The notes under the pieces: model-generated
Seen by the model: only the letters and a program-made list of their open reading frames with translations
Database searches by the model: none
Told to the model about the DNA's origin: nothing
Shown here: positions 1 through 35,016 of the stretch, piece by piece
How positions within the stretch are numbered: the stretch's first letter is position 1
Layout: each line of letters begins with the position of its first letter
Assembly: GCA_036635835.1 (NCBI GenBank)
Contig: JAVWPP010000001.1
Location: forward strand, 68,890-132,889
Length of the DNA: 64,000 bases
Direction: 5' to 3'
From: Clostridia bacterium
Lineage (GTDB): Bacteria; Bacillota; Clostridia; TANB77; CAG-465
Position numbers and translations under genes: made by a program

Positions 1-378
1 AGCAATAGCTGGATTTATGAAGTTTGGATCAAAAAATGGTATTAAATTAAACACTAAATGATGTGGCATAGGGAAGTAAATTGCCGAATTTTGTCCCATA
101 CCTGAAAGTGAAAAAAGTAATCCTACAACTGACATAATTATATATACAAAAAATTGTAGTAAAGCTGTAAATGCTTTAACAAGTGGCTGCATAATTAATG
201 ATGCTCCACCTTCTAAAATATATGATATTCCGCTAACTTTATCGCCGTTTTCGTTTTCTATTACATTTTCTTCTATTACTTCAGATTCCGTTATTTGTGC
301 AGTTACACAGCTAGTTGTTCCAAATATAATTATTATTATCATAGATACAACTACGCATTTTTTCATTATTTTCTCCAT
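1..378 (-). CDS. Partial CDS (5' part in window, continues past left edge): N-terminal part of a paralog of the VirB6/TrbL-like polytopic membrane protein at 2093..4360
   Basis: My translation of the minus strand gives MEKIMKKCVVVSMIIIIIFGTTSCVTAQ..., then ...SAIYFPMPHHLVFNLIPFFDPNFINPAIA, which is near-identical to the motif EVYFPMPYHMVFNIIPFFDPNFINPAKA in the 755-aa protein. Signal-peptide-like N-terminus; ATG at 376-378. Confidence 0.6.
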   Translation of the reverse strand, partial: MEKIMKKCVVVSMIIIIIFGTTSCVTAQITESEVIEENVIENENGDKVSGISYILEGGASLIMQPLVKAFTALLQFFVYIIMSVVGLLFSLSGMGQNSAIYFPMPHHLVFNLIPFFDPNFINPAIA

Positions 379-624
379 ATTGATTACTCCTTATAATTCT
401 ACATTTATTGCTTCATTTATTGCTTCGATTTAATATTAAAATATTAATTTTTTCATTTATTTCCTATATTTATTTTTCGACAAAATAAACATAAATATAT
501 GCTTTATATTCTAACATATTTATCTCCGATTTTCAAGCTATAAGTTCGTTTTTATGTAAAACGTAATCAATTTATATGGCTAAGATACTAATTTGTACAT
601 ATTTATATATGTTGCTATATTTAT

Positions 625-653
625 AAAAAACGAGATAGATTTCGCTACCTCGT
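625..653 (-). terminator. Putative rho-independent terminator downstream of the 285-aa ORF
   Basis: On the minus strand the sequence reads ACGAGGTAGCGAAATCTATCTCGT followed by TTTTTT, a 5-bp stem plus U-run, located 30 nt after the stop at 684. Confidence 0.4.
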
Positions 654-683
654 GTTTTATTTGTTTAGGAAGCTATTATTTAT

Positions 684-1541
684 TTATACAACTTCATTAA
701 ATAAGAATTTGATTTCTATAGGCTCATCATTATTAGGCACTTTCACACTCTTTATTGAAAAGCCAGCCATATATCCATGAGATAATTGTCCAACTTTAAA
801 AGTTGCTAATGTATTTATTTCTTGGTTTGGCTGTATCACCACAGGTCTACCCATTGCAAATGAACTACTTGATACTATTTCTCCATCATTTAAATGATAT
901 CCATAAATGCATTCGTTTTTCGAATCTGAATTAAGTGTAACTGGCTGATCATTGTTGTTTCTTATTTTAAGTTTCATTTTATAAGTAGTAACACCAAAAT
1001 TAACATCAACTAATTCTACAGATATTTTATTACTTATGAATTTTTTATTTAAAGTTGCTTTGTAAATATAATCGTCAAAAGATATAGTGTAATTTCTTGG
1101 CGAAAGTTCTCGAATTATAATATATTCCTCAAGCAATTGATCTTTTGAAGTCATTCTAACTCTATAATATCTTTCATTGTTTATAATTCCATTAATGTAA
1201 TTTGACGGTACTAAATCTACTCCTAATATTTTTTTACCTTCTAATAAGGCTTTTAAATTGTCTTCTGTAATACCCTTTTCTGTAATATATGTATTTGTCA
1301 ATTTAGAGTATATTTCTTTAATGTTAGCCCTTTTTAACAGGTCTGCAATCTCTTTTAAATAACTGTTTAAGTATTTATTATTAGAATCCGTTGCAGATGT
1401 ATATTGGCCAAATTTTAATTCTTGTGGTTTTTCTTTTTTAGGTGCCCATATCATAACAAGTGCAATTATTAAAATTAGTACAACAACTGCAATTAGAATG
1501 CTAAATAAAGTTACCTCTTTTTTTATATCTTTTTCTTCCAT
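684..1541 (-). CDS. Bitopic membrane protein with N-terminal TM anchor and a ~250-aa extracytoplasmic domain, function unknown; candidate VirB8-like or accessory component of the T4SS-like cluster
   Basis: ORF of 285 aa. Hydrophobic segment FSILIAVVVLILIIALVMIW near the N-terminus. 8-nt gap to the upstream gene. No recognisable catalytic motif. Confidence 0.5.
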   Translation of the reverse strand: MEEKDIKKEVTLFSILIAVVVLILIIALVMIWAPKKEKPQELKFGQYTSATDSNNKYLNSYLKEIADLLKRANIKEIYSKLTNTYITEKGITEDNLKALLEGKKILGVDLVPSNYINGIINNERYYRVRMTSKDQLLEEYIIIRELSPRNYTISFDDYIYKATLNKKFISNKISVELVDVNFGVTTYKMKLKIRNNNDQPVTLNSDSKNECIYGYHLNDGEIVSSSSFAMGRPVVIQPNQEINTLATFKVGQLSHGYMAGFSIKSVKVPNNDEPIEIKFLFNEVV

Positions 1542-1549
1542 TACATCAC

Positions 1550-2077
1550 CTATATTTCTAAATAACTAATTTTAAATACTTTACTTCTTGTATCTAATTG
1601 GAATCCTATGAAGGTATTTTCGCTGATTGTTTTAATTTCAGCTAAATACACTTCAATTCCATTTTTATCTGCTATTTTATATAATTTAAATAAATTATTT
1701 TCATTAATATAAAAGTCATTGTCTTTTGTTGATTTAAAGTTTTTAGATATATATTCTTTTATTTTTTTCTTATAATCAAAGAAGGAGTGTTCTTTTTTAA
1801 GCGATTTTGTAAGTACTGAATATGTAGTTTTATCGTCCTTAGATAATAATCCTTCTATGTACATATTCATAACGGTTTCCGCTCTATTAAACTGCGTGTA
1901 ATCTTTGATAAGGTTTTCATCTTTAATATATGATTTGTAATCTTCAATTTTTATTTCACTTTTTGTGGTTTTTGCATTTAAACTTATCAAACTTGAGATT
2001 CCCCATAAAAGAATAACTGTAAGTCCTATAATGGCAATTATCATATTAATATTTTTCTTTTTAATATTTTCAAACAT
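1550..2077 (-). CDS. Small bitopic membrane protein (N-terminal TM), function unknown; part of the T4SS-like operon
   Basis: ORF of 175 aa. TM segment MIIAIIGLTVILLWGISSLISL. K/E-rich soluble domain. 15-nt gap to the VirB6-like gene. Confidence 0.5.
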   Translation of the reverse strand: MFENIKKKNINMIIAIIGLTVILLWGISSLISLNAKTTKSEIKIEDYKSYIKDENLIKDYTQFNRAETVMNMYIEGLLSKDDKTTYSVLTKSLKKEHSFFDYKKKIKEYISKNFKSTKDNDFYINENNLFKLYKIADKNGIEVYLAEIKTISENTFIGFQLDTRSKVFKISYLEI

Positions 2078-2092
2078 TAACTACCTCCATAA

Positions 2093-4360
2093 TTATTGTG
2101 AATCTTCTATATTATCTTTTTTTCTTTTATTATCTATTGTTGTTTTTACTGATTTTTCTCTATTTTGATTTCCTCCAATAGTTTTATTTGCACTACTCTC
2201 ATAACTTACTTGCTCGCTGATTTTTTGTTGTAAATGCTCTTCATAATTTATTTGAGGTTCTATCATTTTAAGCTGTGCTTCTCTTCCGACATTTTTTCCT
2301 ATAGTTTCTGCTATTTTGTCTCCGCCTGAAATTAATGCACCAGATATTGCTGACATATCATTAAGAGATCCAGATGCACCTCCACCCATAGCTAAACCTG
2401 CAACTACTGTTGCTGGTGACATGATTGCTGCAATTGTTTTTCCTGCTAATTGTTTTTCTTGTTCTCTAAGCTGCATTTCAAGTTCTTGTACAGACTTGCC
2501 TGGTAAACCAGAACTTGTCTGAGCTTGTTTTGGTAATTCTGCATTTGCCGCTGCTTGAATTCCTGTGCCTTTAGTTAATCTGTCTGGACTTGCTGCACCT
2601 TTAATTGTACTTGACATAGTTGAAGTTTGGCTCTGCACTGCTTGTAATATTTTATCTAACGCAAGTGCTATTCTATTTACTTCCGGTGAAGCTGTTCCTG
2701 TAGCTTTCAATGCTTGATTTACATCATTCATATCTACTTTTCCATCTCCAATACCAGGCTGCACTGTTGAAGTTTGCCTAGTAGCAGATGGACCTACATA
2801 TGTTAACAGATCCTTATTTGCAACATCTGTTGGTAATTTAGGAGGTGCTGCATTTGGCTGAACTTCTCTTGCTTTAGCTTTTTCAAGCTGAGATCTAGTA
2901 GATTTAATTCCTTTTCTACCAGCTGCCATACCCGTAAAGTTGTCTTTTATATTTTTTGTTGCACCAGCTGCAAGTGAGAAACCTGCAAAACCAAGTTTTC
3001 CTGCGTTTTGTAGACTTCCTGCTTTGGAATCTGGTACTCCAACGAAATCTTTAATTATTGCTTCTACTCTAGTTAATGAGGCTATTGCAACCACTTCTAT
3101 AATTGCTATAAGACCAGCAACTTTATCATGCTGCGCTGCATTATCTCCCATTTGTGTATCTAAAGTAGTAATGCCAGCTTGTTTTGCTAAACTGTTTATA
3201 AGTATCATAGTGAAAAACATTATAAATGCATGTATAGATTGCATAAATACTGCAATTCCAAACTGCGTTAACCATTTTTCAAAAAGTCCGCCTTTTTGTC
3301 CTAATACTTTTTTAATTGTATCTATTCCTATTACAAACGGGAATAGCATACCTAAAATAAGGCAGTAGAATAACCTTTTAATATATAGTATCGTTAGTGC
3401 AATAGTCTGTCCTATCATAACTGCAAGAATAATTGTAGCCATAAGTTCCCCAGATACCGACCTTTGCAAATACATTAAAAACATACCTTCAAATCCATAT
3501 GCTTTTTCTTGTACCGTTTCTACTTGGTTTAACCCTTCATTAATAAGAATTGCACCAAAAGATACTCCTAGTACCGGGCCTAGTAATACGGTCGTTGCTG
3601 CGCCTACTGCAGCGCCTGCGACCCATGCTCCTAGTTTCTCCATAAAGGATAGTTCTTTATCTTTTAATAAAGTTATAGACACTGGTATTTCTTCTTTTTG
3701 CGCGGCTTGATATAGATTAGAGACTATTTGCTCGTTTAGAAAAAATATACCTGCCATAAGGAAATGACCTACAAACAGCAGTATTATACCGGTTAGCCAA
3801 GTTGCTATTGCTGTTTTATATTGTGCTTTTTGCTGCGCTGAAACTGATATTGCAAGCTTTATTCCAATTATTAAAGCAATTACAACAAACAGAGTTGCAA
3901 CAATTGACACGCCTGTGTAATATAACGGGCTGATAGCTTTAGATACTATTTCTATTAAATTAAAGCTTCCTCCAGGAGGTGCTTTAGCTGGATTAATAAA
4001 ATTAGGATCAAAGAATGGTATGATATTAAACACCATATGATATGGCATTGGAAAATACACTTCCGTATTTTCAGTAACTCCCATCATTGAGAATACAACA
4101 GATATAACTGATACGACCATATAAATAATGAATCTTATTAGTAGTGAAAGCATATCTATTATAGCTCCTGAAATAAAGCCAAGCGAAGTAGCTTTTTTCA
4201 ATATTTGATTTAGTATTGTAGTTTTTTGACCATTCTCGCCATCAATTAAAGCTGTATTTAATTCCGTATGTGTTATTTCTGCAAAAATAGTGTTTGTAGC
4301 CACTAATACTAAAGTTACGATTAGAGATACTATTATAATTTTTTTAAGTACCTTTTTCAT
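2093..4360 (-). CDS. VirB6/TrbL-like polytopic membrane protein (compare Tn916 Orf15, ICEBs1 ConG, pCW3 TcpH) with a long hydrophilic low-complexity C-terminal extension
   Basis: 755 aa. Cleavable signal peptide (…TNTIFA-EIT), N-terminal extracytoplasmic region, then 6 or more TM helices in the middle. The C-terminal ~300 aa are A/G/Q/T/S-rich low complexity. Sits immediately downstream of the VirB4-like ATPase, as in Gram-positive conjugation loci. Confidence 0.6.
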   Translation of the reverse strand: MKKVLKKIIIVSLIVTLVLVATNTIFAEITHTELNTALIDGENGQKTTILNQILKKATSLGFISGAIIDMLSLLIRFIIYMVVSVISVVFSMMGVTENTEVYFPMPYHMVFNIIPFFDPNFINPAKAPPGGSFNLIEIVSKAISPLYYTGVSIVATLFVVIALIIGIKLAISVSAQQKAQYKTAIATWLTGIILLFVGHFLMAGIFFLNEQIVSNLYQAAQKEEIPVSITLLKDKELSFMEKLGAWVAGAAVGAATTVLLGPVLGVSFGAILINEGLNQVETVQEKAYGFEGMFLMYLQRSVSGELMATIILAVMIGQTIALTILYIKRLFYCLILGMLFPFVIGIDTIKKVLGQKGGLFEKWLTQFGIAVFMQSIHAFIMFFTMILINSLAKQAGITTLDTQMGDNAAQHDKVAGLIAIIEVVAIASLTRVEAIIKDFVGVPDSKAGSLQNAGKLGFAGFSLAAGATKNIKDNFTGMAAGRKGIKSTRSQLEKAKAREVQPNAAPPKLPTDVANKDLLTYVGPSATRQTSTVQPGIGDGKVDMNDVNQALKATGTASPEVNRIALALDKILQAVQSQTSTMSSTIKGAASPDRLTKGTGIQAAANAELPKQAQTSSGLPGKSVQELEMQLREQEKQLAGKTIAAIMSPATVVAGLAMGGGASGSLNDMSAISGALISGGDKIAETIGKNVGREAQLKMIEPQINYEEHLQQKISEQVSYESSANKTIGGNQNREKSVKTTIDNKRKKDNIEDSQ

Positions 4361-4371
4361 ATAATCTCCTT

Positions 4372-6360
4372 CTACTGTGCTGATTGAGCATTCATATTTG
4401 CGAGTTTAGATAAGTTTGTTTCAACAAATTCAAACTCTTTTTGTGTAGGTTGAATAGCAATAACTGCAGACTCTTGACCTATTTTTATTAAGCCTTCACC
4501 TCTAACACATGTTAATAAGAATTGTGATTCTCCATCACTTAGCTTAAATACTTCTTTTAAATATTGTATTTCAGATTTATCTTGTGCTAAAAATAATTTA
4601 ATTTCAGAAGATGTTAAAACTGCTTGAGCTTCTTTTTTCTCATAAAAGTCCTGGAACTTTTGAGAAACAACTGTTAATGATACATTTCTTTTTCTAGCAC
4701 GTCTAGCCATTGTATTTAAGAACTGTACAGCTTCTGGATAATCTAGTAACATCCACGCCTCATCTACTAGTACTCTCTTCTTTTTAGCTTTTGTTTTATC
4801 TTCACTGTTTTTCTTAACATATTTTTCCCATATCCAAGAAAGTAGGATTTGCTGAGCAAGTGGTCTTGCAAATTTTTCTTCTAGCTGAGATATATTAATA
4901 TTTATAAATGGTGAACCTTCTAAAAGTTCAAATGTAGATTGTCCATCAAAGTATGCCATTTGCCCATCTAGTTTTCTTACATACTGTTTCATAACTTTTA
5001 CAAGGTAACTGTAGTGATAACTGTATGCGCCATTTTGATTTTCTCCTGCTTTAACTAAAAGCGTATCATACCAAGAACTAATTGTTGGCATGTCTTTCTT
5101 TGTTAAGCCGATTCTATTGTTTATTCCACTTGCACTATTAGAATCTATGTATATACTATTTACGTCATTATTTATACCATGCCTTGCATATTCCTCAGCA
5201 ACTATTTCTGCTATTATTTGTTTTGTTAACTCATTAACTTCTGAGCTTCTTGTTGCTCCACGAGCCATTGTAAGTAGTGCTTGTGTAACGTCCTCTATTT
5301 TATTTTCTACATTAAGAACTAATTTATCTTTACCTGTAATTTCATCTTTAGTTGTTTCTGTCTCAATATCAAAAATATTTATTACAGTATTACTATTTGG
5401 GCTTAAATTGATGTTTATACCGCATAAAGCTTCTGCAACAACAACATACTCACCCTCGGCGTCTAGTACTAAATTTTCTATACCCATAAGTACAGATGAT
5501 CTAGCCATTATAGTTTTGATTGTAACTGATTTTCCAGAACCTGATTTTCCAAATATAATCATATTATAATTAGTTAATGAAGAATGGAAATTATCAAAAA
5601 GCAGTGGTAAACCTGTTTGTTTATTCATTCCTATAGGAACTCCAATTGGATGTCCAACTTCTGCTGCTACAAATGGGAAAACTGTTGACATTGAACCTCT
5701 ATCAAAAGTATGTTTTCTTGTTATTTTATTATTGTTAAGCGGTAAATTAGATTGAAGCGCTTCTTCTTGTATTGCCCATGCTGCTTTTAGAGTGATCATA
5801 TTTTTTGATGCTTCCATAGCAAGCATTTCTGAAGATTTATCTAACTCTTCTTTGTTATATGCAAAAAGAGTAGCAATAATAGTAGCTTCAAATAATTTAT
5901 TATATCCTGCTGCTATCTGATCTCTTAACTGTTCTGCTTCAGATTGTTTAGCAGATAGTACAGATTCTCTATTGATATCTCCTCTATCTCTTGCTACATA
6001 TCTTTCTGCTTGTAATTCAACAATGGTTTTTCCTAAATCTTTTTGAGATATAGTTTCAGATATTGGATTAATATATACGGATGTATTTATATCTCCAAAC
6101 TCATATATATCTGCTAAAAAATATGGGAATATTGCTTGTCTTGGTATGGTTGTTAAATAGAAAGTTCTAGCGTACCTAGATACTTTAGAAAATATCTCTA
6201 AATAATCAAAATGAGTAGCATCTATTCCTGATGGAGATATTAAGTCTTTTAATCCTGATTTGTTTTGGTCTAAAAAGCTCATTTCTTTTTCTCCAGCGCT
6301 TATGATTTCTTCTTCTGTTTTAACTGCTTCATTTTTTTGTTTTTTCTTACTTCCAAACAT
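4372..6360 (-). CDS. VirB4/TrsE/TcpF-like T4SS ATPase (DUF87/AAA-like family)
   Basis: 662 aa. Walker A IFGKSGSGKSV followed by the VirB4-type VLDAEGEY box. Walker B / DEAW motif RVLVDEAWMLLD. C-terminal SQKFQDF. Membrane-machine gene context. Confidence 0.8.
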   Translation of the reverse strand: MFGSKKKQKNEAVKTEEEIISAGEKEMSFLDQNKSGLKDLISPSGIDATHFDYLEIFSKVSRYARTFYLTTIPRQAIFPYFLADIYEFGDINTSVYINPISETISQKDLGKTIVELQAERYVARDRGDINRESVLSAKQSEAEQLRDQIAAGYNKLFEATIIATLFAYNKEELDKSSEMLAMEASKNMITLKAAWAIQEEALQSNLPLNNNKITRKHTFDRGSMSTVFPFVAAEVGHPIGVPIGMNKQTGLPLLFDNFHSSLTNYNMIIFGKSGSGKSVTIKTIMARSSVLMGIENLVLDAEGEYVVVAEALCGININLSPNSNTVINIFDIETETTKDEITGKDKLVLNVENKIEDVTQALLTMARGATRSSEVNELTKQIIAEIVAEEYARHGINNDVNSIYIDSNSASGINNRIGLTKKDMPTISSWYDTLLVKAGENQNGAYSYHYSYLVKVMKQYVRKLDGQMAYFDGQSTFELLEGSPFININISQLEEKFARPLAQQILLSWIWEKYVKKNSEDKTKAKKKRVLVDEAWMLLDYPEAVQFLNTMARRARKRNVSLTVVSQKFQDFYEKKEAQAVLTSSEIKLFLAQDKSEIQYLKEVFKLSDGESQFLLTCVRGEGLIKIGQESAVIAIQPTQKEFEFVETNLSKLANMNAQSAQ

Positions 6361-7995
6361 TTATATTCCTCCTTCGTTATTATTATTTGTTACAGCTTCT
6401 TTGTTTAAGTATGGGTTGTTATTGCGCATTTCTTCTAATTTTTGTTCTTTTGAAATCTCCGTACTTTGTACTGGCTGTTGTTTAATTACTTGTTCTAGTG
6501 GTCTTGCAACTTGTGGCTGAGTAGCTTGTGGCTGTTTAATTACCTGTTCTAACGGCCTTGCAACTTGCCCCTGCTGTGTAACTATCTGAGGCTGCTTAAC
6601 TACTTGTTCTAATGGTTTTGCAACTTGTGGCTCTTGTACTTGACTTGCTTGTGGAGCTTGAGGTGTATTTGGCTGCGCTGTTACTTGCTGAGCTTGTGGC
6701 GGCGTAGCTACTGGCCTTTGCACTTGTTGCTGCTGAACTACTTGTCTTTGCTGCATTGCTGCTGCTCTTTCGAATTCTTCTTGCCTTAACTTAGCCTGTC
6801 TTTCTCTTTCTTCTTCTTTTACTCTTTCTGCTCTATCTATGTGTTTTTTTATGATTATTTTAGTCAATGCATCTTTTGTTTCTAAGTCTATATCTGCTTC
6901 TGCAACATATTTCATAGCTAATTTATCTACATCTGCTTCTTCACTTGCTGCTTGCTCACCTGCTATAGGTAAAGAGCCTTTAGCTAGACCTTCTGTGATC
7001 ATTTGCTGTAATCTTTTTGAGCTTTCTTTTTGATATTCTTTAGAAAGAACTTCATCTTTTTTCTCTTCTATGTCTTTTGATGTTGAATATAGTCTATAGA
7101 ATTCTGATGATAATGCTTGTTTAACATCTATTATTTTTTCATCATCTCTGTTGTATGAAATATATAATAGTTCTGCTAGCTGGTTAGAATCTATTACTTC
7201 TCCTGAAACTGAGCAGGCTTGAAGTGCACTTATTATTGAGCGGGCTCTGGTGTAGAGCTCGGTATAGCACATTTGAGTTATTTCTTGTGGAGTGAATTTT
7301 TCTAAGTTTGTTATTTCGCTTTTATTATATGAAAAAATTATATAAAATTTTCTTTGAAGCATTTGCTTGTTACTACTCATTTTTTCTACATAATTTGTTA
7401 TATCATTTGCATACGAAAACATATTGCTATATTTTTGATAATTAAGCTGCGCATCAAACAAGTCTTTATGTGATGTTGTAGGCTCTTGTATTGCTTTTTT
7501 CAAATCTTGCTCATATGTTTTACATTGTAACTCTATATCATCTATTTTTTCTTTATATATTCTCATACTACTTCTTAAATCTACAGCTCTTGCTTGAACG
7601 TAAATTTGTATTGGACATCTTAATGTATTTAAAAAAGTTATAAAACCTTCTTCTACCGCCATTTGTTCTATTTCTGACATTAAATCATAATTTATACCTT
7701 TACACTGAACAACCATGGTATATACATTTCCACCTTTTTGTATTATCATATCATCTGAAATTTTATCAAATTCCATGAAATTAACTATATCAACCATTGG
7801 TACAGCTTTTTTAGCAAAAATCTTTTCTTCTTCTTTATCTACTTCGCCTTTTCCTGTTTCTTTTGTTTTAGGCGGTTTTTTATCTGTCATTATAAATACT
7901 ATTATTACAACTATTACAACTACTGCTCCTAGAATCCATATTAATTGATTTTCCATTTGACTTGTCTCCTTTTTTAGACATATGCTATTTAGCAT
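6361..7995 (-). CDS. Bitopic coiled-coil membrane protein, paralog of 8140..9375, with C-terminal Q/P-rich 17-aa tandem repeats; T4SS-like cluster component of unknown role
   Basis: 544 aa (true start possibly the internal MENQLIWILG). N-terminal TM. Conserved block YTMVVQCKGINYDLMSEIEQ and C-terminal ADIDLETKDALTKIIIKKHI shared with the 411-aa paralog. Its stop directly abuts the VirB4-like start codon. Confidence 0.55.
   Translation of the reverse strand: MLNSICLKKETSQMENQLIWILGAVVVIVVIIVFIMTDKKPPKTKETGKGEVDKEEEKIFAKKAVPMVDIVNFMEFDKISDDMIIQKGGNVYTMVVQCKGINYDLMSEIEQMAVEEGFITFLNTLRCPIQIYVQARAVDLRSSMRIYKEKIDDIELQCKTYEQDLKKAIQEPTTSHKDLFDAQLNYQKYSNMFSYANDITNYVEKMSSNKQMLQRKFYIIFSYNKSEITNLEKFTPQEITQMCYTELYTRARSIISALQACSVSGEVIDSNQLAELLYISYNRDDEKIIDVKQALSSEFYRLYSTSKDIEEKKDEVLSKEYQKESSKRLQQMITEGLAKGSLPIAGEQAASEEADVDKLAMKYVAEADIDLETKDALTKIIIKKHIDRAERVKEEERERQAKLRQEEFERAAAMQQRQVVQQQQVQRPVATPPQAQQVTAQPNTPQAPQASQVQEPQVAKPLEQVVKQPQIVTQQGQVARPLEQVIKQPQATQPQVARPLEQVIKQQPVQSTEISKEQKLEEMRNNNPYLNKEAVTNNNNEGGI
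6420..6665. repeat. Imperfect ~51-54-nt tandem repeats (about 3 units) encoding QVARPLEQVIKQPQ-type peptide repeats
   Basis: DNA units ...cttgttctagtggtcttgcaacttgtggctg... recur three times. The protein shows QVAKPLEQVVKQPQ / QVARPLEQVIKQPQ / QVARPLEQVIKQQP. Confidence 0.7.
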
Positions 7996-8139
7996 TAGAA
8001 ATTATTTATATTTTTTTATATTTTCATTACATACTATTATACTAAAATCTTATCATAAGTAGATTTTCTTTGCAAGAACTTTTAGTGATTTTCTACATGT
8101 TTTGCATATTAAAAAAAACATAAAAAAGGCAACCCAATA

Positions 8140-9375
8140 TTAAAATATTGAATTGCTTTTTATTGCAGGTGTAACAATACCTGTTTTACTATCAACCTTT
8201 GTTGTTTGATTTATGCTAGTATCTAGCTCAACTCCAGCTGCTTTTATTTTTTCTATATGTTTTTTAACAATTAATTTAGTTAATGCATCTTTTGTTTCTA
8301 GATCTATGTCTGCACCAGCTATAATTTTAACTGCCATTTTATCTATTTTCTCATCTCGCTCTACATCTTCGTTTACTTCTGGTTTAAGCCTGCCTTTAGC
8401 TTCATCTTGAGCTCTTTTTATTTTTTGCTTTTCTGCTTTTTCGCTTAAATATTCATTACGTAAAAACTCATTCTTCTGATTCATGCTGTCTCTAGTTGAT
8501 GAATATACATTGTAAAATCCAGAATCTACGGCTTGTTTTATTTCTATGATCTTATCGTCATAAGTATTTAGTGAAACATACAATAAGTCTACTAATTCAT
8601 TACTTGTAAGAACCTTTGAAACTACTTGACATGCATTTAATGCATCTATAAGTTCGCAAGCTTTTTTATATAATACGGAATACGCATATTCTGCAATCTT
8701 TTTGGCTTTTACTTTTTCATCTTGTGGTATTTCAGACTTATCAAAAGAAAATATAATGTAAAACTTTCTTTGAAGCATTCTTTTATTAAATGTAACTTTT
8801 TCAGTATATCTAGTTATATCATCTGCATATTGATACATATTATTTGTTTGCTGTATTTTCATTTGTGCATCATATATTTTTTTAGAATCTATCTCCATAC
8901 TTTGCATAAGCACTTGATATTCTCTCTCCGCATCTTCGCATTTAATTCTTAAGCTTTCTACTTTATTTTTATACATTTCTAAATTTTCTTTTAATTCTAT
9001 TGTTCTAGATTGAACATAAATTTGAATTGGGTAATCTATTAATTCCATACAATCAACGAAACCTTTTTCTACTTTTAATTGTTCTATTTCGGACATCAAA
9101 TCATAATTTATGCCTTTACACTGAATTATCATAGTATATCTACCATCTGAGTTTTGTACAATCATATTATCTAAAATTCTATCAAATTCTACAAACTTAG
9201 AAAGATTAACAAGTTCAGGAGGCTTAGCTTTTTTCTTAGGTTCATTGCTCTCAGGCATATTTGGATTTTTTTTATTTGCGGCTTTCTTTGCAGATTGTTT
9301 ATCTGTAACCATAAGAAATATAAATCCACCTACAGAAAGAACCAAAACTAATATTGTTATTAATTCAAAATTCAT
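8140..9375 (-). CDS. Bitopic coiled-coil membrane protein, paralog of 6361..7995
   Basis: 411 aa. N-terminal TM ITILVLVLSVGGFIFLMV. Shares the YTMIIQCKGINYDLMSEIEQ and ADIDLETKDALTKLIVKKHI blocks with the 544-aa protein. Its start ATG overlaps the stop of the upstream 125-aa gene (TAATG). Confidence 0.55.
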   Translation of the reverse strand: MNFELITILVLVLSVGGFIFLMVTDKQSAKKAANKKNPNMPESNEPKKKAKPPELVNLSKFVEFDRILDNMIVQNSDGRYTMIIQCKGINYDLMSEIEQLKVEKGFVDCMELIDYPIQIYVQSRTIELKENLEMYKNKVESLRIKCEDAEREYQVLMQSMEIDSKKIYDAQMKIQQTNNMYQYADDITRYTEKVTFNKRMLQRKFYIIFSFDKSEIPQDEKVKAKKIAEYAYSVLYKKACELIDALNACQVVSKVLTSNELVDLLYVSLNTYDDKIIEIKQAVDSGFYNVYSSTRDSMNQKNEFLRNEYLSEKAEKQKIKRAQDEAKGRLKPEVNEDVERDEKIDKMAVKIIAGADIDLETKDALTKLIVKKHIEKIKAAGVELDTSINQTTKVDSKTGIVTPAIKSNSIF

Positions 9376-23392: not shown

Positions 23393-23746
23393 TTATATAA
23401 TTGATTGTGCTGCTGTAACAATGAATCCAACTAATGGTTCTGCTAAGAACACTATAATTGCACCTACAATTAGTATAACTGTTTGTTTTTTGATATCTGC
23501 TTTTGAATCTGCAGATGCAAACATATATCTAAGTCCTGCAAATATAATTGCTGCGAATGCAAGTACTTGTATTACAGTTGTTATTGTACTCCATACGTTT
23601 CCCATTGTTGCTCCAACACCTTCTGCAGCTGTTCCTCCGTTTGGTAATGATGTATCAATTCCTGTTCCTGCTGCAAATACAGTTGTTAAACATAATATCA
23701 ACATTAAAACTATAGGTAAAACCTTAACTAATTTTTTCATATTCAA
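23393..23746 (-). CDS. Secreted pilin-like small protein (VirB2/TrbC-like topology), copy 1 of a near-identical tandem pair
   Basis: Signal peptide ...TTVFA-AGT. Motif AGLRYMFASADSKADIKKQ. More than 95% nucleotide identity to 23890..24237. Confidence 0.55.
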   Translation of the reverse strand: MNMKKLVKVLPIVLMLILCLTTVFAAGTGIDTSLPNGGTAAEGVGATMGNVWSTITTVIQVLAFAAIIFAGLRYMFASADSKADIKKQTVILIVGAIIVFLAEPLVGFIVTAAQSII

Positions 23747-23889: not shown

Positions 23890-24237
23890 TTATATAATTG
23901 ATTCTGCTGCTGTAACTATGAAACCAACTAATGGTTCTGCTAAGAACACTATAATTGCACCGACAATTAGGATAACTGTTTGTTTTTTGATATCTGCTTT
24001 TGAATCTGCAGATGCAAACATATATCTAAGTCCTGCAAATATAATTGCTGCGAATGCAAGTACTTGTATTACAGTTGTTATTGTACTCCATACGTTTCCC
24101 ATTGTTGCTCCAACGCCTTCTGCTGCTGTTCCTCCTGCTGGTAATGATGTATCAATTCCTGTTCCAGCTGCAAATACAGTTGTTAAACATAATATTAACA
24201 TTAAAACTACTGGTAAAACTTTAATAAATTTTTTCAT
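23890..24237 (-). CDS. Secreted pilin-like small protein, copy 2 of the tandem pair
   Basis: Differs from copy 1 by only a few residues (N/A at position 34, Q/E near the C-terminus, and the signal-peptide start). Confidence 0.55.
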   Translation of the reverse strand: MKKFIKVLPVVLMLILCLTTVFAAGTGIDTSLPAGGTAAEGVGATMGNVWSTITTVIQVLAFAAIIFAGLRYMFASADSKADIKKQTVILIVGAIIVFLAEPLVGFIVTAAESII

Positions 24238-24401: not shown

Positions 24402-24938
24402 ATGAAAATAATAATTTATAAAATATTTTTATCTTTGCTTGTAGCAATTATAATAATTACTGGTTTATTAACTAAAACAAATACTGATTCTAGTAAATCT
24501 ACTGGTTTTATTTGGCCAAGCGATGTCCATAAAATCTCTTCTCCCTACGGAAAAAGAAATTTATTTACGGTGCATTTTCATAATGGTATTGATATACCTG
24601 CAAGGCAAGGCAGTAATATATATGCAATTTCAGATGGCGTTGTTGAATTTACAAATTTTAAAGGCTCTTTCGGATATACAATTGTGCTTAAACATGATGG
24701 CGAATATAAGAGTATGTACTGCCACGTTGATCCTAATTTTTTAGTTATAGAAGGGCAGTTTGTTAAGCAAGGTGATATAATTGCTAAAATAGGACCTGCT
24801 AGACTGCCAAACTCCGCTACAAAATATTATATTTTTAACGGATATAAGTCTAATGGCATGACTACTGGGCCGCATCTTCATTTTTCTACTATTTTTAAAG
24901 GAAAATATGTGAATCCACAGTCTTTAACGTATAAATAA
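24402..24938 (+). CDS. M23/LytM-family peptidoglycan endopeptidase with N-terminal membrane anchor
   Basis: HFHNGIDI (HxxxD) and GPHLHFS (HxH) zinc-ligand motifs; RBS AGGAGG. Confidence 0.8.
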   Translation: MKIIIYKIFLSLLVAIIIITGLLTKTNTDSSKSTGFIWPSDVHKISSPYGKRNLFTVHFHNGIDIPARQGSNIYAISDGVVEFTNFKGSFGYTIVLKHDGEYKSMYCHVDPNFLVIEGQFVKQGDIIAKIGPARLPNSATKYYIFNGYKSNGMTTGPHLHFSTIFKGKYVNPQSLTYK

Positions 24939-31196: not shown

Positions 31197-32906
31197 TTAT
31201 TTATTTTTCTTAATTTCTATAAATCTTTTTATTTTCATTGTTGTAGTCTTTTCAAATTCGCCATCTTTTATTTTTATGTTTTTCATAGCTTTATATGGTA
31301 CTAAAGTTCTATTGATATCCTTAATGTCTTTCCATATTTTTTCTTCTAAGTTTTCATTTGAAGGTCTATCTTTACCATATTTCTCTTTAATATATTCTTC
31401 ATCTAAGCTAACAATAACCGCAACTTCTGGATCTGTAGCATCTTGCTCATTTTCCTTAGAATATACAAGTGACTCTTTTACTTCTGGAATTTCATTAACT
31501 AAAAATTCTAATTCTTCTGGGAATATTTTTTTACCGTTTTTTGTTACAATTAGATTTTTAGCTCTTCCACAAACAACTAAATTATTTTCTTTATCTAAAT
31601 ATGCTAAATCTCCAGTGTGGAACCAGCCATCTATTACGCATTCTGCTGTAAGTTCTGGTGCTTCATAATATCCAAGCATTAAATTAGTGCCTTTTGTTAT
31701 TATTTCGCCTATACCATCATCATTTACATTATCTAATTTTACTTTCATGCCTTTTGATGCTATTCCAACTGTACCAGCTTTTCTATTTGAAAGCGGTGTT
31801 CCGCATATTAGTGGAGCAGTTTCTGTAAGTCCAAAACCTTGTAAAACAGCGATTCCTAAGCCTTCATAAGCTTTAATTAAATTAGCATCTATAGGAGCTG
31901 AACCAGTTAGAACATACTTTAATCTACCACCAAGTTTTTGATGTATTTGTTTAAACATTATACGTTTTATCTTAATACCAACTTTATCTAGTCCATTAGT
32001 TATTTTAACCATTTTAGTAACTAGTTCTTTTTTACCTTGAGCAATTAAAGTTTTGTCTATTTTTTTATATAATTTGTCTAAAAGAAGCGGTACAGCTACT
32101 AGCATAGTAGGCTTGTAATCTTCCATATTAGTAGAAATATACTTAAGACCTTGGCATACTCCTACACTTGCTCCATTATATAGGGCAAACATATACGTAC
32201 CAGTTAATTCATATGTGTGATGTATTGGCAAAATAGAAATCAATTTATCTTCTTTTGTTAGAGGTAAATAGTCTCTTGCTCCATCTAAATTACCTATTAC
32301 ATTGCCGTGACAAAGCATAACACCCTTAGCTGCTGCAGTTGTACCAGATGTAAATAGTAATATTTTGAACTCTCTTGGATCTATTTTTATACTTTCATAA
32401 ACTTGATTTCCAGCAGCTCTTAATTCTCTACCTTCTTTAATTATTTTATCTAGTGTAAGATCATTTGGAGTTTCTGCTTCCTCACTATACATTTCTATAA
32501 AATGCTTAATTGTTGGAACCTTATCCCTAATTTCTGCTATGCATTCTGCTTTTTTAGGAGCATATATTATAGCTTCTGCCTTAGATCTTACAATTAAATT
32601 TTGAATCTCATTAGCAGGCAGCTCTTTATCTAGCGGAACTACTATACCAACTGCTGTTGTAACAGCTAAATATGATACTATCCACTGATAACTATTCTCA
32701 CCTATTACAGCCACTTTTTTACCTTGTAAATGATATTTTTCTATTAAAGCAGTTGCTAAATCTTGAATATTCTCTTTTAAATCTGAATATAAATAATCTT
32801 TATATCCTTTTTCTGTTATTCTTCTTTCTGTTATAGCGACTCTTTCCATGTAATTTTCCCATCCGAAGTCTACCATATCTTTAAATGACTTAATATTATT
32901 ACTCAT
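31197..32906 (-). CDS. AMP-dependent synthetase/ligase (long-chain acyl-CoA synthetase, FadD-like), paralog 1
   Basis: TSGTTAAAKGV AMP-binding motif; YGLTE; GWFHTGD. Confidence 0.85.
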   Translation of the reverse strand: MSNNIKSFKDMVDFGWENYMERVAITERRITEKGYKDYLYSDLKENIQDLATALIEKYHLQGKKVAVIGENSYQWIVSYLAVTTAVGIVVPLDKELPANEIQNLIVRSKAEAIIYAPKKAECIAEIRDKVPTIKHFIEMYSEEAETPNDLTLDKIIKEGRELRAAGNQVYESIKIDPREFKILLFTSGTTAAAKGVMLCHGNVIGNLDGARDYLPLTKEDKLISILPIHHTYELTGTYMFALYNGASVGVCQGLKYISTNMEDYKPTMLVAVPLLLDKLYKKIDKTLIAQGKKELVTKMVKITNGLDKVGIKIKRIMFKQIHQKLGGRLKYVLTGSAPIDANLIKAYEGLGIAVLQGFGLTETAPLICGTPLSNRKAGTVGIASKGMKVKLDNVNDDGIGEIITKGTNLMLGYYEAPELTAECVIDGWFHTGDLAYLDKENNLVVCGRAKNLIVTKNGKKIFPEELEFLVNEIPEVKESLVYSKENEQDATDPEVAVIVSLDEEYIKEKYGKDRPSNENLEEKIWKDIKDINRTLVPYKAMKNIKIKDGEFEKTTTMKIKRFIEIKKNK

Positions 32907-33062
32907 TATTTCCTCCTATAATTATTACCTAGTGCTAATATACACTATTTTTTAAATTTTGTCAATACATTTGCATTTTAAAAATATATTTTAGCAAGTT
33001 AAAGTAAAAATATAAGTGCAAGAATTCAATAATTTAGAATACTTGCACTTATGCTTTTTATA

Positions 33063-35006
33063 TTACTTGTTTTTGGGTTTATCTATTTCTTTATTTTTAG
33101 CTTGTTTTTTTATTTCTTTTACTTTTGTTGCTTTTACATCTTTTACTTTTGTTTTTTTCTTCTCTTCATCCTTCTTAATTTCAGCAAATCTTTTTATTTT
33201 CATAGTAGTAGTCTTTTCAAATTCATCTGATTTAATTTCTAGATGCTTAATTGCTTTATATGATGTTAAAGTTCTATTTACTTCTTTGATTTCTTTCCAA
33301 ATTATATTATATATTTCTTCTTCGTTTAAATCTCCATGGTTTTCTTTAATGTACTCTAAATTAGGAATAACCTTAACTGAAATACTTAATTCCTGTTTAT
33401 CTTCATTCTTACCATACACCATACATTCTTTTACGTATGGTATTTTAGCTACAATCATTTCTAATTCTTCTGGATAAATATTTTTGCCGTTTTGCGTAAC
33501 TATTACATTTTTACATCTGCCAGTAATGAATAAATATCCTTCATCGTCTAAGTATCCAATATCTCCAGAATGGAACCATCCATCTATTACGCATGCATCG
33601 GTTTCTTCTTTGTTTTCATAGTATCCAAGCATTAAAGTGGTACTTTTAATTAATATTTCACCTTCGCCATTTTCATTTGGATCTTTTATTTTTAATTCTG
33701 CGCATGGTACAGCTTTACCAGTAGAACCTACCTTAGGCTTGTAGTCTGGTGTAAATGCTGCAATAGGGGCAGTTTCTGTTAATCCATATCCTTGTAAAAA
33801 CATGATTCCTATGTCCTCTAGCCATTTACCTATTTTAGGATCTATTGGAGCTGCTGCTGAAACTATTAATCTAATATTTCCACCTAAATTATCATAAATT
33901 TCACTAAAGACTTTCTTTTTTAAATCTATATTTACAGTTTTTAATGCATTAGTAACATGTATCATTGAATTAACTAAGTTTTCTTTTTTACTTTTTTGTA
34001 TATTTGCAATTATTTTTTTATATAAATTCTCTACAAGTACTGGTACTGCTAAAAGTGCTGTAGGTTTTGTTTCTTTTAAATTTGTAACAATGTATTTTAA
34101 GCCTTCGCATATTGCAACAGATGCACCACCATACATTGGCATAAGGAAGCCAATTGTTGATTCATATGTATGATGAAGTGGTAATACAGAGAAAAATCTA
34201 TCCTTATCGTCCATATATGCATATGATAATGCACCAAAAATGTTATCTGTTAGGTTTCTGTTACATATCATAACACCTTTTGACTGAGCTGTTGTTCCAG
34301 ATGTAAAAATTAAAACTTTAAACTCATCTGGGTCTATTTTTATTTTTCTAAAATCTTCATTGCCTGTTTTAACAAGTTGTTTACCTACGTTTATTACATA
34401 CTCAAGTCCTACGTCTTTGCCTTCTATTTCACTGTCTGAATTCATTTCTATAAAATAATCTACATCTGGTAAATTGTCTTTTACTTTATTTATTATATCT
34501 TTTTTTCTTTTAGAATAAATAACCGCAGATGCTTTTGCTCTTTTTACTACATTTTCTATTTCATTTGCAGGTAAATCCTTGTCTACAGGTACTGCAATTC
34601 CAGTTCCACAAAGCATTGCCATGTATGAAGTATACCAGTGATATGTGTTTTCTCCTATGATAACAACTCGTTTATCTTTTAAGCCAAGTAGCTCGTTAAG
34701 CGCTGTGCCAAGGCCAATTACGTCTTCTTCAAATGCTTTATATGTTATTTCTGTATATGGCTGTTTATGATCGAATTTCTCAAGAATTACTGTATTTGAA
34801 GCGTATTTTTTGGCTGAATCGTAGAACATATCTCTTATTGTTTTATATCTAGTTCTTTCGTAGATTTTGCCTTCTTTTTTTTCTTTGTTTTTAGCTTGAG
34901 CTGCTAAATCTAAATTAACTTTAATTTCATCTATGTTTAATAAGCCAGGCATTTTAAATTTTGGAAACTTAAAATCTGGGATCTTTATATCTTTTAATAT
35001 TCTCAT
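33063..35006 (-). CDS. AMP-dependent synthetase/ligase, paralog 2, with N-terminal extension and lysine-rich C-terminal tail
   Basis: TSGTTAQSKGV, YGLTE, GWFHSGD motifs; K-rich tail. Confidence 0.85.
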   Translation of the reverse strand: MRILKDIKIPDFKFPKFKMPGLLNIDEIKVNLDLAAQAKNKEKKEGKIYERTRYKTIRDMFYDSAKKYASNTVILEKFDHKQPYTEITYKAFEEDVIGLGTALNELLGLKDKRVVIIGENTYHWYTSYMAMLCGTGIAVPVDKDLPANEIENVVKRAKASAVIYSKRKKDIINKVKDNLPDVDYFIEMNSDSEIEGKDVGLEYVINVGKQLVKTGNEDFRKIKIDPDEFKVLIFTSGTTAQSKGVMICNRNLTDNIFGALSYAYMDDKDRFFSVLPLHHTYESTIGFLMPMYGGASVAICEGLKYIVTNLKETKPTALLAVPVLVENLYKKIIANIQKSKKENLVNSMIHVTNALKTVNIDLKKKVFSEIYDNLGGNIRLIVSAAAPIDPKIGKWLEDIGIMFLQGYGLTETAPIAAFTPDYKPKVGSTGKAVPCAELKIKDPNENGEGEILIKSTTLMLGYYENKEETDACVIDGWFHSGDIGYLDDEGYLFITGRCKNVIVTQNGKNIYPEELEMIVAKIPYVKECMVYGKNEDKQELSISVKVIPNLEYIKENHGDLNEEEIYNIIWKEIKEVNRTLTSYKAIKHLEIKSDEFEKTTTMKIKRFAEIKKDEEKKKTKVKDVKATKVKEIKKQAKNKEIDKPKNK

Positions 35007-35016
35007 AAAATCACTC

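Follow-up and report, generated by a model that had tools for sequence, protein, structure and literature searches.

The left end of the DNA analysed here, a 64,000-nucleotide (nt) window of a Clostridia bacterium (GenBank assembly GCA_036635835.1, contig JAVWPP010000001.1, positions 68,890 to 132,889), carries a gene cluster resembling those of type IV secretion systems (T4SSs), and it was found that the large polytopic membrane protein in the VirB6 position of this cluster is encoded by two genes. One of these (copy A, 755 amino acids, aa) has its start codon 11 nt past the stop of a VirB4-like gene and preceded by AAGGAG, and the other (copy B) runs off the left edge of the window. We consider it likely that A and B are intact, long-diverged paralogs of the large polytopic subunit of a chromosomal, monoderm (MPF_FATA-related) type IV secretion or pilus apparatus. 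The family to which they belong combines a pilin-like hairpin with a VirB6-position protein, is represented in thousands of uncultured Clostridia sequences, and has no curated profile.

The genes of the cluster are ordered as pilins, a PrgI/VirB3-like gene, two TraC/TrsD-like genes, VirB4, copy A, genes for 175-aa and 285-aa proteins, a spacer with terminator-like and promoter-like elements, and copy B. Past copy B follow a 1245-aa peptidoglycan hydrolase, three small proteins, an S1-domain protein and a 341-aa Replic_Relax-like protein. Coordinates are given in Table 1.

Copy B is a complete gene

An earlier note on this DNA had proposed two VirB6-like paralogs and had named a truncated fragment at the left edge as the result that would speak against them. 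Within the window, the open reading frame (ORF) of copy B has no stop in 126 codons, with AAGGAG 8 nt ahead of the ATG at 378, and its first 126 aa contain one hydrophobic helix and, as that note had stated, a signal peptide of its own (..CVTA/QIT, the slash marking the cleavage site here and below). The remainder was read on a 225-kb contig of a Clostridia metagenome-assembled genome (MAG; GCA_036667975.1, JAVWSZ010000001.1), which was reached via a 100%-identical VirB4-like protein, is 100% identical to window positions 1..16360, and was examined over 9.3 kb past the left edge. There, copy B is a full gene of 736 aa. The interval that begins in the C-terminal part of copy A and ends in the N-terminal part of copy B was recovered at 100% and 99.95% identity in independent assemblies, and other assemblies of the same species covering the A/B genes had 99.3 to 100% nucleotide identity to the GCA_036667975.1 contig. 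The two-copy arrangement is real, and copy B is no pseudogene fragment.

Over their whole length, tail motifs included, the two copies are 51% identical (71% positives). The first 126 aa of copy B matched copy A at 41% identity (BLASTP, E 1e-30), and so the nearly verbatim repeat reported for this region holds for a 24-aa family motif, with 21 of 24 residues identical, and fails for the remaining N terminus. Among 95 diverse members, N112, D118 and N120 of this motif are invariant, and P104, D107, F111, F121 and P124 are at least 90% conserved. Eight of the 21 identical residues differ in codon, and recent gene conversion was rejected as the source of the shared motif for this reason; in view of these differences and the family-wide conservation, the motif has been kept by selection and not by recent copying.

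Third-position identity between A and B at identical residues was 0.33 to 0.82 per 40-codon window, meaning that synonymous sites have almost reached saturation. No exact match exceeds 32 nt; the one of this length lies at window 3234..3265(-) (copy A nt 1095-1126) and at 17069..17100 of contig L027. For these two reasons the duplication must be old. Because the paralogs share this exact repeat, short-read assemblies of the locus are fragmented; contigs L029, L030, L036 and L037 were seen to break at or within ~30 nt of it, and L028 ~56 nt beyond.

The most diverged parts of A and B are the N-terminal 126 aa (41%) and the mid-tail (about 23-42%). This strong divergence, and the fact that the nearest relatives manage with a single copy, could be taken to mean that one copy is redundant and decaying, a silenced or non-functional duplicate with its frame still open. 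We regard that as very unlikely, given that both ORFs are intact although synonymous sites are nearly saturated, that a Shine-Dalgarno sequence, a signal peptide, the tail motifs and all checkable family-invariant residues are kept in both copies, and that the same-species assemblies reaching A/B match so closely. The residues invariant in the family are N112, D118, N120, N209, E210, Y326, R329 and P341, and because every invariant residue is kept despite the old duplication, we argue that both copies are functional.

Architecture of the polytopic protein

The 755-aa protein had been described as a signal peptide, a polytopic core and a long tail, and a hydrophobicity scan agrees with this description. 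The N terminus reads MKK...TNTIFA/EIT, with cleavage predicted past IFA27 by the hydrophobicity scan; within the close family neither A27 nor T30 varies, in keeping with a signal peptidase I site. Beyond the signal peptide there are ~8 hydrophobic helices (Kyte-Doolittle), the last near residue ~436, and AlphaFold2 (AF2) concurs. The tail, residues 471-755 (~285 aa), consists of A 11.6, K 9.1, G 9.1, S 8.8, Q 7.7 and T 7.4%, so that the rich composition ascribed to it (A/G/Q/T) is correct; it is not simply disordered, as had also been proposed, since it carries the family-conserved motifs DNFTG and AGxAxGxGA...AGDKxAE and aligns between A and B over the full length. It also contains a glycine-rich hydrophobic hairpin with nearly invariant G659, G661 and D681, conserved in copies A and B alike. 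A match of the coiled-coil/glycine-rich tail to Phi92_gp134 in a PDB profile search (E 9e-4) was treated as compositional.

The last two hydrophobic helices and the tail form a C-terminal module that is an ORF of its own in many relatives, starting at the equivalent of residue ~352. In L003-L007, L021 and L023 the polytopic gene is split into two ORFs in different frames, the break being at about residue 352 (window ~3305), so that the first ORF (~340 aa) covers the N-terminal part and the second holds the two helices and the tail. An exhaustive profile search also returned many representatives of 320-360 aa with the N-terminal part only. The 755-aa form may be a fusion, or the split forms may be fissions.

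Embedded in the core is a helical hairpin resembling a VirB2-type pilin. Of 59 relatives, 38 gave a match to the profile PF18895 (T4SS_pilin; best E 6e-7), and copy A residues 139-198 gave a weak match to the NCBIfam Mbov_0395 pilin-like model (E 0.0074). When residues ~123-205 were compared with the cluster's own pilins by hhalign, the alignment was collinear over the whole mature pilin (E 5e-4, probability 31%). In the AF2 model two helices form a long hairpin here, and the loop that joins them is short and K-rich.

Relationship to VirB6

The polytopic family is large: an exhaustive hidden Markov model (HMM) search gave at least 3,517 cluster representatives at E<=1e-3 and 2,555 at E<=1e-10, and the view that the family is rare, taken from 12 relatives found by a word-indexed protein search, was dropped.

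The label VirB6/TrbL-like, given in the earlier note, is partly supported, by gene position, polytopic architecture and weak remote signals; it is correct as regards a polytopic subunit of a T4SS cluster, and not as regards membership in the Pfam or NCBIfam TrbL/VirB6 families. The 755-aa protein has the five or more hydrophobic helices expected of a polytopic subunit and lies beside virB3/virB4-type genes, and Pfam and NCBIfam scans and gene tables gave no other VirB6 candidate in the cluster. An AF2 model of residues 1-470 from a 95-sequence alignment was of good quality by its scores (predicted local distance difference test, pLDDT, 82; predicted template-modelling score, pTM, 0.80), and a full-length model from 8 sequences was too poor for use (pLDDT 53). 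When Foldseek was run with this core, the TrwI/VirB6 chains of R388 were unsurpassed by any natural PDB protein (7o3v_G, probability 0.95, target-normalised TM-score 0.49), and DotA was also among the matches. In addition, PF19597 (TrbL_4) was matched by 2 of the 59 diverse relatives (best E 6e-6), and a non-significant hhalign alignment with the PrgH (VirB6) family profile places the family-invariant R329...P341 on the invariant R155...P167 of PrgH.

Several results weigh against a VirB6 relationship. The 755-aa protein had no match at E<=1 to any Pfam family, TrbL (PF04610) and TrbL_2/3/4 included, and no NCBIfam TrbL/VirB6 assignment; as a control, PrgH matches Pfam TrbL at E 1e-6. No credible match to a solved structure was obtained in PDB sequence-profile searches with the family, all Foldseek E-values were >=0.2 with root-mean-square deviations >10 A, and the hhalign comparisons with PrgH itself, with the PrgH family profile (E 0.29) and with Tn916 Orf15 (E 0.11) were not significant. 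The topology is also uncertain: plain counting of helices yields no arrangement that accommodates the signal peptide, the first hydrophobic helix and a pilin loop on the inside all at once, and in R388 VirB6 most hydrophobic helices lie outside the membrane (PMC12857230).

The missing Pfam TrbL match and the poor PrgH score would also be expected if the proteins were not VirB6 homologs, and instead formed a separate family of the MMCAP2_0566/Mbov_0396 type (pilin-like hairpin plus polytopic domain), known from Mycoplasma integrative and conjugative elements (ICEs), which occupies the VirB6 position as a functional analogue or, e.g., as a pilin chaperone or anchor. The sole recurrent curated matches of the 59 relatives are indeed to NF045848 (MMCAP2_0566; 40 relatives, best E 4e-10) and NF045889 (Mbov_0396; 18 relatives, best E 2.3e-7), one match, in P0009, being collinear over positions 13-315 of a 322-position model. 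However, all of these fall far below cut-off, the best score among ten relatives scored singly being 26 bits against cut-offs of 90 (NF045848) and 70 (NF045889), and the Mycoplasma proteins have no established fold; copy A itself matched neither model. The best natural Foldseek matches were repeatedly VirB6 chains, TrbL_4 was matched in two relatives, and the cluster offers no alternative VirB6, and we hold a non-VirB6 identity to be rather unlikely. The polytopic protein is probably a VirB6-position platform subunit and a very remote VirB6 homolog.

The spacer upstream of copy B

Copy B had been said to be parted from the operon by a terminator hairpin and an AT-rich promoter region, and candidates for both were found. 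The spacer (379..683, 305 bp) has 21.3% GC, in comparison to 29.7% for the window. The terminator-like hairpin folds with a dG of -20.9 kcal/mol in its 101-nt context (z = -5.2), and 0 of 200 shuffled sequences folded as well. The site at 508..536(-) is promoter-like, a sequence-level assignment that leans on its context; a point against it is that the promoter scan counted 73 sites, no excess over the 60 +/- 9 of shuffled controls. An Rfam scan of the spacer found no RNA element. The gap between copy B and the hydrolase gene is 36 nt, with no terminator between them. We infer that the hydrolase is transcribed in a distal unit beginning with copy B, and that copy A is read with the VirB4 operon.

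Relatives and history of the duplication

The same gene order was found in all 15 other species-level loci, which come from MAGs and metagenomes (mouse, rabbit, leopard and other gut samples): pilins, PrgI, one TrsD-like protein, VirB4, the polytopic protein, a ~180-aa and a ~290-aa protein, a multi-domain hydrolase of 1100-1700 aa, small membrane proteins, an S1-domain protein and a ~340-aa protein. Peptides of the family, when used to scan genomes and metagenomes, supplied 5 and 6 loci, none of which belongs to the source genome. In 15 of the 15 there is one polytopic copy at the main locus, and only L025 has a second tandem module. In most relatives the single polytopic gene lies directly past VirB4 (the A position). 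In the nearest relatives, L031/GCA_028748505.1 (VirB4 94% identical) and L033/L034 (VirB4 91%), the A position is empty, and the single copy is flanked by the 285-aa gene on one side and the hydrolase on the other (the B position).

A full-length tree grouped A with B at 100% bootstrap, sister to P0001/P0002, also at 100%. On the 126-aa fragment the tree did not resolve (57% bootstrap). The possibility that the edge copy is orthologous to P0001, the 755-aa gene coming from an older lineage, was dropped because the full-length tree groups A and B. Since copy B occupies the same slot, between the 285-aa gene and the hydrolase, it is the positional ortholog of the sole copy of the nearest relatives; copy A would then most simply have arisen in this lineage by duplication of copy B, the new copy having been returned to the A site. 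This reverses the earlier framing, in which the 755-aa gene was the main copy and the edge copy the second, in that the nearest relatives keep only the B-position copy.

L025 (GCA_947631415.1), a distant relative from a different branch, has two tandem modules within 1..18606. The second consists of a 983-aa polytopic protein gene, two bitopic genes, a hydrolase and a ~315-aa gene; the two modules are 28-30% identical and are parted by a gene for an 877-aa AgI/II-MucBP-SpaA adhesin. On account of this module, duplication of exposed parts around one ATPase recurs in the family.

Chromosomal setting

The window has ~30% GC and nearly all of its genes on the minus strand. Directly beyond the cluster are rseP, cdsA, frr, pyrH, tsf, rpsB, ftsH, tilS, dnaB and gdpP, and further away pgi, spoIIP, secDF, tyrS and secY. 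From its sequence context, the cluster is placed on the chromosome of a gut Clostridia bacterium that is uncultured and, with SpoIIP present, spore-forming. Neither an integrase nor a coupling protein was found in the 64-kb window and ~10 kb beyond its left edge, the sole relaxase-like gene in this span being the sub-threshold Replic_Relax-like gene that closes the cluster, and when plasmid and phage collections were searched at the DNA and protein levels, using this region and the 755-aa protein, a 157-nt VirB4 match was all that came back.

In L022, L003, L004 and L007 the genes ahead of the cluster are spoIIP, pgi, one for a 219-aa protein and a divergent M23-like one, and the window retains the spoIIP-pgi junction at 23.4-28.2 kb, including two near-identical pilin genes. 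Because this pilin/spoIIP-pgi block directly abuts the cluster in the four loci, the window cluster is taken to be split by 12.5 kb of housekeeping genes (gdpP to rseP).

Identity to L022 differs strongly from gene to gene, being 83% for VirB4, 78% for the 341-aa protein, 70% for the S1-domain protein, 61% for PGI, 56% for SpoIIP, 53% for the PrgI-like protein, 48% for the TrsD-like protein, 34% for the 175-aa protein, 30% for the polytopic protein, 28% for the hydrolase and 27% for the 285-aa protein. Because of this gene-specificity, long vertical residence with fast evolution of envelope-exposed parts is favoured over a recently moving element. Across species, VirB4 is ~80% and the 341-aa protein ~75% identical, and the polytopic, bitopic, hydrolase and pilin proteins are ~27-45% identical. 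Among VirB4 clusters formed at 90% identity, each of the 120 best listed shares 76-94% identity with the window VirB4, and many are on contigs of 100-850 kb; therefore, the apparatus appears to be widespread and chromosomal in uncultured Clostridia.

The duplicated parts of the locus (two TraC-like genes, two polytopic genes, and extra pilin genes 12.5 kb off) could also have come from two ICEs lying side by side or recombined, with the second polytopic copy belonging to a different conjugative element. The resemblance to Mycoplasma ICE proteins and the Replic_Relax-like gene at the cluster end would agree with this. We nevertheless find such an origin extremely improbable, given the lack of an integrase or coupling protein in the span examined, the single VirB4 and single hydrolase, a GC content like that of the chromosome, a cluster that adjoins spoIIP-pgi in several MAGs, with the junction kept in the window, and the conservation pattern across VirB4, the 341-aa protein, the polytopic protein and PGI, which fits vertical residence.

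Comparison with known systems

TrwI of R388 (PDB 7O3V/8RT9) and PrgH of pCF10 (PF04610) are likewise polytopic, mostly helical and encoded in a VirB3/VirB4 block, and their clusters share VirB2-type pilins and a VirB1-type hydrolase with the one described here. In the hhalign alignment, the family's invariant R...(12)...P pair falls on R155...P167 of PrgH. In contrast, PrgH has 266 aa, whereas the window protein is ~3x longer and has a cleavable signal peptide, the pilin-like hairpin and the conserved 285-aa tail; moreover, the window polytopic gene follows virB4, whereas prgH of pCF10 precedes prgI and prgJ.

A hydrophobic core with a large hydrophilic and partly unstructured extension, similar to what is seen here, is found in the MPF_FA proteins Orf15 of Tn916 and ConG of ICEBs1 (700-900 aa) and in Rickettsiales RvhB6, and copies A and B, with their ~285-aa tails, are of the size (at least 700 aa, with an extension) of such extended VirB6 proteins; to Orf15 there is no homology detectable by hhalign. 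Rickettsiales have more than one RvhB6 paralog per genome (PMC12857230), and multiple VirB6 paralogs had been put forward for this locus as a Rickettsiales-type hallmark. This did not hold up, in that the window cluster is monoderm and MPF_FATA-like (CD1110-type VirB4, PrgI), there are two copies only, with two genes and a terminator between them, and duplication is exceptional in the family, as the 15 other single-copy loci show. The Rickettsiales comparison is an analogy only.

The Mycoplasma ICE proteins of NF045848 and NF045889 have the same neighbourhood (pilin-like Mbov_0395, the polytopic protein, VirB4 Mbov_0397), and their models are the only curated ones matched by many family members, collinear over the core. 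They are ~300 aa, without a long tail, and belong to mobile ICEs, whereas the window locus is fixed and chromosomal.

The T4SS of Patescibacteria is chromosomal and relaxase-poor, and a TrsD-like protein resembling the VirB4 N terminus has been described in it (PMC12102498). Parts shared with the window cluster are PF18895/PF04956 pilin arrays, PrgI/VirB3, a TrsD-like protein, a VirB4 of MPF_FATA ancestry and a VirB6-like protein (PMC12102498), and both systems are chromosomal without a coupling protein near the cluster (within the window and ~10 kb here). The window host differs in being spore-forming, and its cluster in having the extra giant hydrolase, the S1-domain protein and the Replic_Relax-like protein.

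A model for the two copies

In the mechanism that we propose, each polytopic copy would be exported via its Sec signal peptide and would oligomerise into a membrane platform beside VirB3/VirB4, by analogy with TrwI/VirB6 and PrgH. VirB2-type pilins would polymerise on this platform and the substrate would pass through it, as in R388 and pCF10, while the giant hydrolase would open the wall. The pilin-like hairpin (residues ~123-222) is plausibly a docking or nucleation surface for pilins; a VirB6-type base for pilins has been modelled in other systems (PMC12857230; bioRxiv 10.64898/2025.12.18.695078). Production of copy A would be tied to the VirB4 operon and that of copy B to the hydrolase unit, and the two copies would probably give alternative or mixed platforms of different pilin or partner specificity. 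A and B differ most over the ~100 residues at the start of the mature protein and over the mid-tail, where exposure is most likely. A nucleic acid substrate is hinted at by the conserved S1-domain and Replic_Relax-like proteins; the S1-domain and ~341-aa proteins, and a ~525-aa SWIM zinc-finger protein that is added to the cluster end in some relatives, are possible nucleic-acid-handling parts of the system.

More tentatively, and with the odds against it as a whole, A and B might be alternative platforms of a widespread, vertically inherited T4SS-like pilus machine of gut Clostridia without a coupling protein. Among free-living Bacillota this machine would correspond to the essential chromosomal T4SS of Patescibacteria, and its lineage might be the one from which that system came. 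Its built-in hairpin would nucleate the pilus, and duplication and repositioning of A/B would switch or broaden partner or pilin specificity. If this were true, the cytoplasmic engine would be frozen and the exposed parts would be evolving fast.

Gram-positive T4SSs have long been held to be pilus-less, and a recent proposal is that VirB6-like pentamers nucleate VirB2-like pili there too. A two-platform locus with one ATPase, one hydrolase and several pilins is a handy genetic test bed for the role of the platform in pilus assembly and specificity. Similarly, a fixed-looking chromosomal cluster with a parts list in common with the essential Patescibacteria T4SS bears on non-conjugative roles of monoderm T4SSs. 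Taken alone, the two copies amount to a duplicated gene in a system that is widespread but uncharacterised.

Other components and features of the window

The 175-aa and 285-aa proteins are weakly related to each other over their N-terminal ~95 aa (hhalign E 1e-5). The 285-aa protein had no Pfam match and no PDB sequence match, and the 175-aa protein had no PDB match. The 285-aa gene occupies the slot where VirB8-like proteins might be expected, and a VirB8-like identity of the two proteins was considered, but PDB profile searches and hhalign against PrgL were negative.

The VirB4-like ATPase matches NF045971 (CD1110-family VirB4) at E 6.5e-66 over model positions 180-730, together with Pfam P-loop_TraG, AAA_10 and DUF87. 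The 544-aa TraC-like/TrsD-like protein resembles the VirB4 N-terminal domain (NF045975 VirB4, model positions 95-268, E 0.0013), and PF26593 TraC-like is recorded for a 397-aa allele of its gene (L029, L030). Its tail in the window has three copies of VA[KR]PLEQV[VI]KQ, and the gene is called as 397 + 91 aa in two same-species assemblies, which suggests length or frame variation in the repeat. The second, 411-aa paralog is 52% identical to its L031 ortholog. The window has two such genes, with a terminator-like hairpin at 8156..8129(-) between them, in comparison to one in most relatives. The PrgI/VirB3-like protein is 48-58% identical in relatives, and the 1245-aa hydrolase has Peptidase_M23, Peptidase_C39_2 and Glucosaminidase domains. 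The ~341-aa protein scored 24.5 bits against Replic_Relax (cut-off 25.3) and is 73-78% identical across species; in L022, L023 and L025, too, it stands with the S1-domain protein at the cluster end.

Table 1. Positions of the features discussed, numbered from the first letter of the window unless another contig is named.
Feature	Position	Strand	Basis or remark
Copy B, first 126 codons: signal peptide, first hydrophobic helix, family motif YFPMPHHLVFNLIPFFDPNFINPA	1..378	(-)	translation
Copy B Shine-Dalgarno sequence AAGGAG	~387..392	(-)	sequence
Promoter-like site TTGAAA-17-TG-TAGAAT, extended-10 TG	508..536	(-)	consensus scan; ~130 nt upstream of ATG 378
Intrinsic-terminator-like hairpin: 9-bp stem, 6-nt loop, T6 run	630..653	(-)	31 nt past 285-aa gene stop
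285-aa bitopic membrane protein: one N-terminal transmembrane helix and globular part	684..1541	(-)	relatives 24-35% identical
175-aa bitopic membrane protein, conserved cluster member	1550..2077	(-)	
Copy A, 755-aa polytopic VirB6-position protein	2093..4360	(-)	stop codon counted in
Copy A C-terminal module, residues 353-755: two hydrophobic helices and ~285-aa tail	2093..3304	(-)	
Glycine-rich hydrophobic hairpin in copy A tail, residues ~640-690: SPATVVAGLAMGGGASG...ISGGDKIAETIGK	2291..2443	(-)	conserved
VirB2-pilin-like helical hairpin of copy A, helices 135-171 and 175-222, loop SAQQKAQYK	3695..3958	(-)	AF2
Family signature motif YFPMPYHMVFNIIPFFDPNFINPA of copy A, residues 101-124	3989..4060	(-)	conservation in 95 diverse members
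Copy A signal peptide (predicted), residues 1-27	4280..4360	(-)	hydrophobicity scan; A27 and T30 invariant in close family
VirB4-like ATPase, 662 aa, without the usual N-terminal ~180 residues	4372..6360	(-)	NF045971
TraC-like/TrsD-like membrane-anchored protein, 544-aa ORF, Q/P-rich repeat tail	6361..7995	(-)	public record 531 aa
Second TraC-like/TrsD-like paralog, 411 aa	8140..9375	(-)	PF26593 TraC-like on record
PrgI/VirB3-like small membrane protein	9375..9752	(-)	called 113 aa, 9375..9716; Pfam PrgI E 8e-4, sub-threshold
Two VirB2-type pilin genes: double-pilin fusion 9818..10462/10480 and 111-aa pilin 10508..10843	9818..10939	(-)	
S1-domain protein (~273 aa) and ~341-aa protein, cluster end	L035 19139..20858		outside the left edge of the window

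The window has at least four pilin genes, and those at 9818..10939 gave matches to PF18895 (E 2.5e-7) and TrbC (E 5e-6). The 214/220-aa pilin (9818..10480(-)) is an internal tandem duplication whose two pilin units span residues ~66-138 and ~141-218. Of the promoter-like sites in this region the best, TTGACT-17-TG-TATACT at 10877..10905(-), is just upstream of the start of the 111-aa pilin at 10843 and likely marks the start of the T4SS operon, as far as its sequence and position suggest; a long AT-rich hairpin with a T-run is present at 10925..10966(-), just past rseP. The tandem VirB2-type pilin genes at 23393..23746(-) and 23890..24237(-) share 95.7% identity between them and ~50% with the 10508..10843 pilin, and their neighbours are the divergent M23-like gene at 24402..24938(+), the 219-aa OB-fold-like gene, pgi and spoIIP. 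Elsewhere in the window, 31197..36723(-) encodes three AMP-binding (acyl-CoA ligase-like) paralogs in a row, with 569, 647 and 568 aa.

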